Shown piece after piece: positions 275-3,200 of a stretch of DNA of 32,000 nucleotides. Below the pieces are notes generated by a model. It worked only from the letters and a program-made list of their open reading frames with translations, was not told where the DNA came from and did not search any database. Position 1 is the stretch's first letter. The number at the start of each line of letters is the position of its first letter. The stretch comes from an uncultured Gaiellaceae bacterium (GTDB taxonomy: Bacteria; Actinomycetota; Thermoleophilia; Gaiellales; Gaiellaceae). The DNA lies in NCBI GenBank assembly GCA_963746975.1, contig CAVVDE010000012.1:66798-98797 (forward strand), in the 5' to 3' direction. The translations under genes were made by a program, and so were the position numbers.

Positions 275-1501
275 ATGGATCCCCCGCGGGACGGTGAACG
301 ACGGCTGGCCCCGGTCGAGCTCGCAGCCGAGGCCGGTGTCGAGCTCGCCGACGTCGAGCGTCTCGTCGCGGCCGATGCTCTTCACCCCGACGCCGACGGC
401 TCGCATTCCCCCAGAGATGTCCTGCAGATACGGCTCGTCCAGGCGATGGCCGAGAGCGGCATCGATCTTGACGACGTCGTGTGGGCGATTCGAGATGCAG
501 AGCTGCCGATCGATCGCGTCGCCGAGGGGTGGGAGCTCGCCGAGTCGAGCGGCCGGACGTTTGCCGAGTTCGAGACGTCACTCGGCGAGCGTGCGGGCCT
601 GCTGCCGGCCGTCTACGCGGCGTTCGGCCTAGCGCTGCACCCGCCGGACGCGATCATGCGACGGGACGAGGAGGAGGTCATCGCGAGCTTCCTCGAGGTG
701 TGGGCGCTGGTGGAGGACCGCGAGGACGTCTATGTCCGCGCGGCGCGGATCGCCGGCGACGGGATTCGCCGCCTCGACCTCGCCACCCTCGACCTCTTCG
801 ACGAACTGGGCGGAGCCCCACCGCCGCGACTCCGCAGAGGGCTGCCGCTGGAGGAGGCGGTTCTTCCCTCGCACCTCATCAGCTCGGTCACGGAGCAGCT
901 GCTCGTGTGGCTCCATAGGCGACACACGGAAAACGAGGTTTTCGAGCGGATCGTCGACAGGCTCGAGCAGACCCTGGCAGGCGCCGGACGGCGAGAGCGG
1001 CAGCGCGTCGAGCCTCCTGCCGTCGCGTTCGTCGACCTGACCGGTTACACGCAACTCGCCGCCTCCGCCGGAGACCACGATGCGGTGCGGGCTGCGACAT
1101 TGCTGCACTCCCTTGCACTGGATGCAGCGCGTGTCCACAACGGTCGCGTCGTCAAGCTGCTCGGCGACGGCGTCGTTCTCAGGTACCCGTCTGCGCGTGA
1201 GGCGGTTTCTTCGGTGGCGGAGCTCATGGGGGAGATCGCTCGCGCCGGGTTACCGCCGGCTCACGCCGGGATCGCGGCGGGGCCGGTCGTTGCGCGCGAC
1301 GGCGACATCTACGGCCACACCGTGAACCTCGCGTCGAGGATCGCGAGTCACGCGTCCGCCGGCGAGCTTCTCGTCCATACGGACATCAGCGGGAGTGTGC
1401 AGGAGGAGGGCCTCGAACAGGAAGACGCCGGCGAGGCATCGCTCAAGGGCATCGTGGAGCCGGTCCAGCTCACACGTGTCCGGCTGCCGAAGCCCTCCTG
1501 A
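275..1501 (+). CDS. class III adenylate/guanylate cyclase with an N-terminal helical domain
   Basis: The C-terminal part of ORF 173..1501 reads [12 protein letters not shown]...[14 protein letters not shown]...[30 protein letters not shown], the class III cyclase catalytic core. I prefer ATG 275 (MDPPRDG) because starting at 173 would overlap the divergent AKR start. GTG 236 is also in frame, so the start is uncertain. Confidence 0.85.
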
Positions 1502-1526
1502 ATCCCGTTCCGCTCCGGCGCACGCG

Positions 1527-1556
1527 CTGCGGAGAAGCCGCAGGCCCGGTGCGGGC
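1527..1556 (+). terminator. two tandem GC hairpins downstream of the cyclase gene (possible U-tract-less terminator)
   Basis: CTGCGG-agaag-CCGCAG (1527-1543) is followed directly by GCCCG-gtg-CGGGC (1544-1556). There is no T-tract, and short stems like these are common by chance in GC-rich DNA. Confidence 0.2.
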
Positions 1557-1612
1557 GTCCTCCCGATGTAGGCTCGAGGCATCCCTGCGAGGGTGAGCCC
1601 GAGGAGGCCTGT

Positions 1613-2749
1613 TTGGACGAGCCCAAACGCGCGACGATCGAGCCCGAGGAGCTGGAGACGCTCGTCGCCGCGCTGCGACGCCGGGGCTACCTCGTCGTGG
1701 GGCCGACCGTGCGCGACGGAGCCATCGTCTACGAGGAGCTCGAGACCGCCGACGAGCTGCCGGTCGGGTGGACGGAAAAACAGGACGCAGCCACGTATCG
1801 ACTCGAGCGCCGCGACGACGAAGCCCGCTTCGGCTATGCGGTCGGGCCGCATTCGTGGAAGCGATTCCTCTTCCCGCCGCGAGTACGGCTCTGGCAAGCG
1901 AAGAGAAACGGCGACGGCGCGCTCGAGGTCGAGGAGGACGCTCCGGACGCGAGACCGCTGGCGTTCCTCGGAGTTCGCTCCTGCGACCTGCACGCGATCG
2001 CGATCCAGGACCGCGTCTTCATCGGCGGCCGGGTCGTGGAGCGTGACTACGCGGCGCGCCGAGCGGGCGCCTTCGTCGTCGCGGCGAACTGCTTCGAGCC
2101 GAGCGGGACGTGCTTCTGCGTCTCGATGGGTACAGGGCCTCGCGCCGAGTCGGGGTACGACCTCGCTCTGACGGAGGTCCTCGAAGGCGGGCACCGCCTC
2201 CTGGTGGAGGTCGGCACGGAGCGCGGCGCCGAGGTCCTGGCCGAGCTCGAGTCTCGGCCCGCGACGACTGCCGATCTCGACGGCGCAGCTCGCGCCGTCG
2301 ACAGCGCGGCCGAGCGCATGGGCCGCCACATGGACGCGCGCGACCTCCGCGACCTCCTCGCCGAGAACCTCGACCACCCGCGCTGGGACGACGTCGCCGA
2401 TCGCTGCCTCACGTGCGGGAACTGCGTTCTCGTCTGCCCCACGTGCTTCTGCTCGACGGTCGAGGACCACACCGACCTTTCGGGCGAGCACGCCGAGCGT
2501 TGGCGCACGTGGGACACCTGCTTCTCCGTCGACCATGCCTACATCCACGGCGGGAGCTTCCGACCGAGCCCCCGCTCCCGCTACAGGCAGTGGATGACGC
2601 ACAAGCTCGGCACGTGGCACGACCAGTTCGGGACATCAGGCTGTGTCGGCTGCGGGCGCTGCATCACGTGGTGCCCGGTCGGTATCGACATCACCGAGGA
2701 GGTCGCCGCGATCCGCGCGACGGGAGGAGACGACGGTGCGACAGCTTGA
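1613..2749 (+). CDS. hyhB: [NiFe]-hydrogenase group-3b-type beta subunit (AsrA-like 4Fe-4S protein)
   Basis: TTG start sits 5 nt after GAGGAGG. Ferredoxin-type motifs [16 protein letters not shown] and [16 protein letters not shown] are present. It is the first gene of a B-G-S-L subunit order. Confidence 0.85.
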
Positions 2750-3200
2750 AGAGATACTCGGCGACGTCCCGTTCCTCGAGGGGATGAGCCAGGAGCAAAT
2801 CGCGCTGCTGGCGGGGTGCGCGTCGAACGTGCACTTCGACGCGGGCGAGGTCGTCTTCCGGGAGGGCGACCAGGCGGACACGTTCTACGTCATCCGCCAT
2901 GGCACCGTTGCGATCGAGCTGCACGCGCCCGCACGCAACGCGATGACGGTGGAGACGATCGAGGCGGGCGAGGTCCTCGGCTGGTCGTGGCTCTTCCCGC
3001 CCTATCGCTCGCACTTCGACGCGCGCGCGCTCTCGAGCGTGCGGGCGACCGCCTTCGACGGAGCGTGCCTCCGCGGCAAGTGCGACGACGACCCCGTGCT
3101 CGGCTACGACCTCGTCAAGCGCTTCGCGCAGGTCTTCACCGAGCGCCTGCACTGGACGAGGCTGCGACTCCTGGACATCTACGGTGACGGCGTCGCCTGA
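2736..3200 (+). CDS. stand-alone cyclic-nucleotide-binding domain protein (154 aa, no HTH), embedded in the hydrogenase operon
   Basis: GTG 2736 follows GGGAGGAGA and overlaps the hyhB stop by 14 nt. The protein reads [27 protein letters not shown]...[18 protein letters not shown]...[25 protein letters not shown]. This shows the beta-barrel and a phosphate-binding-cassette-like GE..G...P.RS....A. It ends about 40 aa after the cassette, so there is no DNA-binding domain. Confidence 0.85.

Follow-up and report, generated by a model that had tools for sequence, protein, structure and literature searches.

The stretch of 32,000 nucleotides analysed here (the window; positions 66,798 to 98,797 of contig CAVVDE010000012.1, from an uncultured Gaiellaceae bacterium) carries near its beginning an operon for a cytosolic, NAD(P)-linked [NiFe]-hydrogenase of group 3b, and between hyhB and hyhG, the two diaphorase genes of this operon, lies a gene for a protein of 154 amino acids that consists of a cyclic-nucleotide-binding (CNB) fold only (Table 1). 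An earlier note, made from the sequence alone, had recognised this gene, had taken its product for a partner of the AsrA/AsrB-like diaphorase, and had suggested second-messenger control of the hydrogenase by a class III cyclase whose gene ends 111 nt upstream of hyhB on the same strand. Both the CNB-only protein and the position of the cyclase gene were confirmed. The embedded CNB gene is a near-universal, uncharacterised component of the bacterial group 3b hydrogenases sampled, and its product is very probably a partner of the diaphorase, whereas the cyclase is a chance neighbour and not part of the conserved hydrogenase system.

The operon was assigned to group 3b by the best NCBIfam matches of its four subunits, which are sulfhydrogenase alpha, beta, gamma and delta subunits, all with scores below the equivalog cut-offs. 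HyhB is matched best by sulfhyd_HydB, ShyB (sulfhydrogenase beta) and AsrA, while HyhG combines the Pfam domains NAD_binding_1, DHODB_Fe-S_bind and FAD_binding_6 with NCBIfam matches to hydrogenase gamma subunits and AsrB. The solved large subunits in the PDB closest to HyhL are those of Thermococcus kodakarensis (5yxy) and Pyrococcus furiosus (9nez), both of group 3b, and the CxxC motifs of HyhL could be read from its sequence.

Table 1. Genes and sequence features of the hydrogenase operon and its upstream neighbour (window coordinates)
Feature	Position	Strand	Basis or remark
Class III adenylate-cyclase-like gene, 408 aa	275-1501 (stop 1499-1501)	+	Pfam Guanylate_cyc
Spacer between cyclase gene and hyhB, 111 nt	1502-1612	+	GAGGAGG a few bases 5' of TTG 1613
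hyhB, 378 aa, diaphorase Fe-S subunit (AsrA/sulfhydrogenase-beta-like)	1613-2749 (start TTG 1613, stop 2747-2749)	+	Fer4_22, E=8e-33
Shine-Dalgarno sequence GGAGGAG of the CNB gene	2723-2729, inside the end of hyhB	+	Sequence reading
CNB-fold-only gene, 154 aa, between hyhB and hyhG	2736-3200 (GTG 2736, TGA 3198-3200)	+	Pfam cNMP_binding
CNB cassette-like segment, residues 78-98	2967-3029	+	Profile alignment to PKG CNB-A, family residue counts
hyhG, FAD/NAD(P)-binding diaphorase subunit (AsrB-like)	GTG 3184 or ATG 3223 to 4014	+	Pfam, NCBIfam
hyhS, hydrogenase small subunit	4011-4787	+	Oxidored_q6; sulfhyd_ShyD, HydD
hyhL, [NiFe] large subunit, DPCISCATH motif	4780-6072	+	NiFeSe_Hases; sulfhyd_ShyA
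Hydrogenase maturation protease gene	6069-6527	+	HycI, E=3.8e-12
hypA	6509-6772	+	Open reading frame; HypA called in close relatives L090, L091
hypC	about 6772-6984	+	Open reading frame; HupF_HypC called in close relatives L090, L091

The sole Pfam domain of the CNB protein is cNMP_binding, which spans residues 32-116 with E=3.3e-14 and a score of 53 bits (cut-off 27.5) and places it in the CNB superfamily. Its AlphaFold2 model (mean predicted local distance difference test score 82.5) shows a beta-barrel followed by a long C-helix and no further domain, and its best Foldseek matches, with a probability of 1.00, are the effector domains of Mycobacterium tuberculosis CRP and of GlxR and the stand-alone CNB protein 3mdp. 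No helix-turn-helix was detected by Pfam or in the AlphaFold2 model, and the chain stops 13 residues past the C-helix. Because it has no DNA-binding domain the protein is not a regulator of the CRP/FNR type, which bears out what the earlier note had expected. Nor is the gene a chance open reading frame (ORF), since more than 100 homologues of equal length (about 154 amino acids) are 69-90% identical to it.

The position of the CNB gene within the operon is highly conserved. Members of the family were found in at least 596 species genomes, one genome being considered per species, and in 78 of the 80 loci fetched from these genomes through the CNB protein the gene order is hyhB-CNB-hyhG-hyhS-hyhL-protease. 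These loci span at least 10 phyla, including Actinomycetota (Gaiellales, Solirubrobacterales), Acidobacteriota, Chloroflexota, Planctomycetota and Ignavibacteria as well as Zixibacteria, Verrucomicrobiota, Binatia, Armatimonadota and Burkholderiales. A second scan was anchored in HyhG and covered 80 metagenome loci, with the HyhG of a CNB-less Streptomyces operon as the lead of the alignment; 74 of these loci contained enough upstream sequence to be informative, and in 71 of them the CNB gene is located immediately 5' of hyhG. On plasmids, 12 out of 15 hyhB genes have a CNB gene adjacent, and a profile search of 1.84 billion representative sequences recovered 643 clusters of the family at E<=1e-30. 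Among the cultivable bacteria with such an operon are Rhodococcus equi 103S, Rhodococcus sp. DK17, Paraburkholderia phytofirmans OLGA172 and Frankia casuarinae. Thus, the association of the CNB gene with group 3b hyhBGSL, one half of the co-occurrence considered in the earlier note, holds across genomes, but the other half, the adjacency of a cyclase, was seen in none of the 160 loci (see below).

Within the window the CNB gene overlaps hyhB by 14 nt, as previously noted, its start at 2736 lying before the hyhB stop at 2747-2749, and an overlap of exactly 14 nt is the commonest arrangement, found in about 37 of 85 loci. The overlap of 17 nt with hyhG that had also been described exists only if GTG 3184 is used as the start codon of hyhG, but ATG 3223 is at least equally likely. 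In most loci HyhG is conserved from about residue 14 onwards, the stop codon of the CNB gene precedes this conserved HyhG start by 4-40 nt (median 22) across 85 loci, and the starts chosen by gene callers are non-overlapping in L091 and overlapping in L090 and L001. This geometry of hyhB, CNB gene and hyhG is typical of translational coupling. In addition, the CNB protein diverges at the rate of a structural subunit: CNB proteins have a median of 57.9% identity with that of the window, compared with 62.9% for HyhB, 54.4% for HyhG, 71.7% for HyhS, 65.9% for HyhL and 50.9% for the protease, and CNB identity tracks that of HyhG most closely (r=0.85).

The most telling evidence that the CNB protein belongs to the enzyme are natural gene fusions. 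CNB-HyhG fusion proteins of 463-470 amino acids form at least 10 distinct clusters at 90% identity; one of them, P0415, has 30 member sequences, occurs with its exact sequence on 16 contigs, and sits in an intact operon (HyhB-[CNB-HyhG]-HyhS-HyhL-HycI-HypC) of an Acidimicrobiales metagenome-assembled genome (MAG). A longer protein of 613 amino acids present on 12 contigs (P0420) has the architecture CNB-CNB-HyhG. Fusions to the other diaphorase subunit were also found, namely the HyhB-CNB proteins P0358 and P0391 (542 amino acids), and in L096 a second, free CNB gene follows next. The existence of fused versions with two CNB copies, together with the CRP-like C-helix of the model, suggests that the CNB protein forms a dimer. 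A further candidate, P0406 (563 amino acids, HyhB plus CNB plus partial HyhG), was discounted as a fusion as its contig shows signs of frameshift errors.

In contrast to its well-conserved context, the presumed ligand pocket deviates from that of true cyclic nucleotide monophosphate (cNMP) receptors. In cAMP and cGMP receptors the glutamate of the phosphate-binding cassette contacts the ribose 2'-OH and an Arg-(Ser/Thr/Ala) pair holds the cyclic phosphate. A profile alignment to the cGMP-binding CNB-A domain of PKG confirmed the cassette-like segment proposed earlier and aligned G82-W83 with the canonical Gly-Glu and R91 with the canonical arginine. Among 86 embedded family members the Glu position is occupied by Trp in 84 and by Ala or Val in the remaining two, never by Glu; the Arg position is retained in 61 of the 86, is otherwise taken by V, K, L, Q or C, and is mostly followed by Trp. 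A conserved GWSW motif thereby replaces the GE(L/I)A of true cNMP receptors. Of the nucleotide-binding residues, the glutamate is thus lost, while the arginine is kept in part, including the window protein itself, which retains Arg-Ser (R91-S92). Binding of cNMP by the CNB protein appears doubtful from these residues; it keeps some likelihood because the Arg-Ser pair is present in the window protein and because Epac binds cAMP without the cassette glutamate. The family has three conserved cysteines as well (C28 in 83/86, C111 in 83/86 and C116 in 75/86 members), which are lost in Rhodococcus, in Streptomyces and in the fused versions. Candidates for a metal or Fe-S site, these cysteines are not central to what the protein does, given their absence from divergent and fused members.

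The cyclase gene upstream of the operon encodes a protein with an N-terminal MerR/FtsR-like helix-turn-helix, a middle region of the Rv1828_C type and a C-terminal class III cyclase domain, which matches Guanylate_cyc partially and above the cut-off (31.4 bits against 21.9). Its NCBIfam matches are LipJ-cyclase and FtsR, homologues of 400-420 amino acids carry PF28507 and PF00211, and the family comprises 1965 matches at E<=1e-5. Aligned sequences of 121 family members conserve D254, K294, D298, D344, N351 and R355, which by motif comparison we take to be the catalytic-type residues (metal-binding Asp, substrate-specifying Lys/Asp and transition-state Asn/Arg). The Pfam match and these conserved residues identify the protein as a putative class III cyclase, and the unusual fusion of a MerR/FtsR helix-turn-helix with a cyclase domain suggests a DNA-binding cyclase.

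However, this cyclase is not conserved near the hydrogenase. Searches by tblastn and with a hidden Markov model of its own subfamily, which could miss very divergent cyclases, found no cyclase in the surroundings of the operon in 80 genome and 80 metagenome loci. The genes upstream of hyhB are heterogeneous across loci, and a Pfam scan of 144 ORFs located there revealed no recurrent family, Guanylate_cyc not being among the families with at least two members. The two closest relatives, whose CNB proteins are 90% and 86% identical to that of the window, share with it the downstream order protease-HypA-HypC-EamA-DUF6390 but have other genes upstream of hyhB and no cyclase there. Moreover, three orthologues of the cyclase are all located far from any hydrogenase.

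One of the loci with a cyclase orthologue (L086; 62% identity) deserves a separate comment. There, the cyclase gene is divergent to the gene of a 161-amino-acid CNB-only protein (358-843, minus strand) with the canonical cassette GELAAIDGGPRAATV, and elsewhere on this contig (7258-8120, minus strand) the gene of a CNB protein of 149 amino acids, whose cassette GEVGFFDGLPRSA is canonical too, overlaps a globin gene at its end. These two are the likely real cAMP receptors of this cyclase family; the textbook cassette GELAAIDGGPRAATV contrasts with that of the hydrogenase-embedded CNB family.

Several members of the CNB family were observed in other surroundings. On two Streptomyces plasmids, paralogues of 158 amino acids that are 38-43% identical (L085:3730-4206 and L084:21125-21600) lie 12-14 kb from the hyh operon; the operon of L085 has no embedded CNB gene, and its paralogue, which might act in trans, has a P-type ATPase gene with a hemerythrin domain as 5' neighbour and is followed by a CBS-BON protein gene. 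Genes for universal stress proteins (USP), DUF1876, wax-ester synthase (WS/DGAT), hemerythrin, CBS and PFOR proteins are neighbours of the operons on two Rhodococcus plasmids (L092, L093) and in L003 and of a stand-alone CNB gene (L055), surroundings which are reminiscent of hypoxia or dormancy regulons and fit the hypoxia induction reported for Mycobacterium smegmatis Hyd3. Tandem CNB-CNB proteins of 300-350 amino acids (P0241-P0245, P0247, P0251) are the top matches of the family profile; P0241 was dropped as support for a link to hydrogenases as it adjoins outer-membrane, CusB and RND efflux genes and no hydrogenase.

An Anaerolineae MAG (L081; JADZBY010000598.1) harbours a family member of 51% identity 3' of a hydrogenase of the Hdr/Mvh type. 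This region (292-8501) starts with an Hdr-like set (a Fer4 protein, a CCG-domain protein and a 683-amino-acid FAD/Fe-S protein) and continues with a distinct pair of [NiFe] small and large subunits (26-27% identical to those of the window), a protease, and two CNB-only genes in tandem at 7476-7952 and 7986-8501, the second of which encodes the 51%-identical protein; further on, at 10205-12331, a hybrid-cluster protein is encoded. Hydrogenases of the group 3c type, too, may therefore have CNB-only proteins as companions.

As for the remaining features of the locus, the spacer at 1502-1612 was inspected with a view to joint transcription of the cyclase gene and hyhB; no promoter or terminator was called in it, and it folds no better than shuffled sequences (z=0.85). 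An Rfam scan of the window gave no match. Downstream of hypC (6981-8650) come genes for an EamA transporter and a DUF6390 protein, as they do in L090 (9317-10989) and L091 (6913-8582). DUF6390 is also encoded 3' of the operon in a distant locus of the Acidimicrobiales type (L179:10807-11628) and may be functionally tied to group 3b hydrogenases. Divergent from the cyclase gene, positions 1-213 of the minus strand appear, by sequence reading alone, to encode the N-terminus of an aldo/keto-reductase-like protein (GFGVFQ).

The explanation that we favour, and consider reasonably probable, is that the enzyme has in the CNB protein a fifth subunit or a tightly bound partner, which docks, probably as a dimer, on HyhB/HyhG and provides a regulatory ligand site. 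Fold, synteny, coupling geometry, conservation, fusions and the lack of linkage to the cyclase are direct observations, whereas physical binding, dimer stoichiometry, regulatory role and ligand are inferred from them. It would be co-translated with HyhB and HyhG by means of their overlapping or close stop and start codons, would bind the HyhB/HyhG pair, probably in dimeric form through its CRP-like C-helix, and would contribute a regulatory or ligand-sensing site which modulates activation of the enzyme or the flow of electrons between NAD(P)(H) and the [NiFe] site. In this role it would parallel HoxI2, which acts on HoxFU, the diaphorase of the soluble hydrogenase from Cupriavidus necator. 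The ligand is more likely not a canonical cNMP because the pocket is remodelled, with GWSW in place of GE(L/I)A; NAD(P)H or another nucleotide are possible candidates. A more specific version, in which a nucleotide second messenger or NAD(P)H at the GWSW pocket of the HyhB/HyhG-bound CNB dimer directly gates electron flow or reactivation, is a speculation that we regard as rather unlikely. If it were true, most bacterial group 3b hydrogenases would be allosterically regulated enzymes of five subunits.

A number of observations weigh against the CNB protein as a fifth subunit. The CNB gene is dispensable in some lineages: hyhB is located immediately 5' of hyhG in 3 of the 74 informative metagenome loci and on some Streptomyces plasmids. 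No hydrogenase genes adjoin a few of the family members, namely that of L055, the tandem protein P0241 and the paralogues from Streptomyces. To our knowledge, the archaeal group 3b operons also are without a CNB gene, and a search of the PDB with the CNB profile, in which the solved group 3b enzymes are all archaeal, returned generic CNB domains only and no hydrogenase entry or chain. The M. smegmatis Hyd3 operon likewise has no CNB gene, because its beta, gamma, delta and alpha subunits are encoded on consecutive locus tags (MSMEG_3931-3928; PMC2799521). The AlphaFold2 model of a natural CNB-HyhG fusion, computed from an unpaired alignment, contains confident domains but defines no interface, since the linker (residues 152-180) is disordered and the predicted template modelling score is 0.63. 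Finally, the place in the operon and the fusions are compatible with a dedicated assembly factor as well.

Such a factor, required for example for insertion of Fe-S clusters or FAD or for subunit docking of the diaphorase and no part of the mature enzyme, would be encoded where the CNB gene is, between the diaphorase genes and in one operon with maturation genes (protease, HypA, HypC); the conservation of C28, C111 and C116 and the lack of the CNB gene in some functional-looking operons are consistent with it too. Yet fusions to HyhG and HyhB in many lineages argue for a permanent association, the cysteines are lost in Rhodococcus, Streptomyces and the fused versions, and we know of no Fe-S or flavin chaperone with a CNB fold, so that we consider this explanation unlikely. 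We rate as still less probable that the protein acts as a stand-alone sensor with an indirect effect on operon expression, exerted for instance through binding to a transcription factor. CRP/FNR regulators typically contain a CNB fold, the gene has been labelled accordingly in PMC11879354 and in JGI annotations, and some paralogues reside in stress- or hypoxia-type surroundings without a hydrogenase, beside USP, WS/DGAT and CBS-BON genes. On the other hand, the protein has no DNA-binding domain, and a fixed place between structural genes, subunit-like conservation and fusion to enzyme subunits are unlike what is seen for regulators.

Direct relay of a second messenger, in which the neighbouring class III cyclase makes cAMP or cGMP and the CNB protein binds it, is what the earlier note had proposed. 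The protein does have the fold of a cNMP receptor with cAMP-bound CRP and GlxR as best structural matches, it keeps R91-S92 at the cassette Arg position, and the cyclase, on the same strand 111 nt upstream, retains its catalytic-type residues; moreover, cAMP binding by Epac survives loss of the cassette glutamate alone. Nevertheless, none of the 160 related loci revealed a cyclase by tblastn or the subfamily model (very divergent ones could be missed), the 144 upstream ORFs include no recurrent family, the closest relatives have no cyclase upstream, and orthologues of the cyclase occur elsewhere, one of them (L086) next to another CNB protein, whose cassette is canonical. Together with Trp at the cassette Glu position in 84 of 86 members and Arg in just 61 of 86, this renders the proposal improbable, and second-messenger control through the adjacent cyclase, which is not conserved nearby, is not upheld.

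Group 3b hydrogenases are described as the four-subunit enzymes HyhBGSL, a picture based on archaea and M. smegmatis. Across the sampled bacterial lineages, which cover many phyla of soils and sediments, operons as a rule contain a fifth conserved gene, and some lineages have it fused to diaphorase subunits. Our literature search retrieved three passing mentions of this gene, which agrees with the statement in the earlier note that similar genes are annotated in other group 3b clusters: it was called a 'small transcriptional regulator' in Frankia (PMC11879354), is a listed ORF in Rhodococcus equi (PMC13332983), and was named 'HoxI' in a methanotroph (PMC12319191), a label which reflects analogy, not orthology. 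No paper on its distribution, its cassette, its fusions or an experimental test was found. If the CNB product is a subunit, current models of NAD(P)H/H2 coupling by these widespread hydrogenases in hypoxia are incomplete, the protein should be included in heterologous expression and structural work, and its annotation as a CRP-like regulator or as 'HoxI' should stop.

Among known systems, the best structural matches of the CNB protein are the effector domains of CRP/FNR proteins (M. tuberculosis CRP, 3i54/4a2u; Corynebacterium glutamicum GlxR, 4cyd), with template modelling (TM) scores of 0.71-0.75 over about 140 residues. The long C-helix of the model corresponds to the helix that forms the CRP dimer, but the helix-turn-helix is absent, Trp stands at the position of the cassette Glu, and the gene belongs to an enzyme operon. 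The stand-alone CNB protein Gmet_1532 (3mdp) has the same size and fold (TM scores 0.79/0.92, root mean square deviation 1.9 A) at 28% identity. With the four-subunit group 3b enzymes, P. furiosus sulfhydrogenase I (9nez/9e15), T. kodakarensis Hyh (5yxy) and M. smegmatis Hyd3, the operon shares the same beta, gamma, delta and alpha subunits.

The closest functional parallel is HoxI, a CNB-only protein encoded on plasmid pHG1 (PHG093) of C. necator (Ralstonia eutropha) H16. As a homodimer it attaches to the diaphorase of the soluble, NAD+-reducing hydrogenase of group 3d (HoxHYFUI2); it dissociates at high salt and has been described as the site at which NADPH activates the oxidised enzyme (PMC3702609, PMC3189943). 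High salt together with alkaline pH leads to loss of HoxI. The view that control of a hydrogenase in this manner is without precedent had overlooked this protein. Like HoxI, the CNB protein studied here is small, consists of this fold only and has its gene in the operon of an NAD(P)-linked [NiFe]-hydrogenase of the cytosol, and the cassette is non-canonical in both. They differ in that HoxI keeps the cassette Glu and has Pro at the Arg position, whereas the CNB family has Trp at the Glu position; hoxI is located 3' of the protease gene and the CNB gene between two diaphorase genes; and the partner of HoxI, HoxFU, is Complex-I-like, while HyhBG is AsrAB-like. Orthology was rejected on an identity of 23% over 132 residues, which is the level of generic CNB domains, and on these sequences the relation is one of analogy or of very distant common origin. 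What appears to be new is thus a HoxI-like CNB module on a different, AsrAB-like diaphorase. If the CNB product is indeed a subunit, the principle of HoxI, a CNB module seated on a hydrogenase diaphorase, would extend from group 3d to group 3b and possibly to group 3c, suggesting a recurrent mode of regulating cytosolic hydrogenases.

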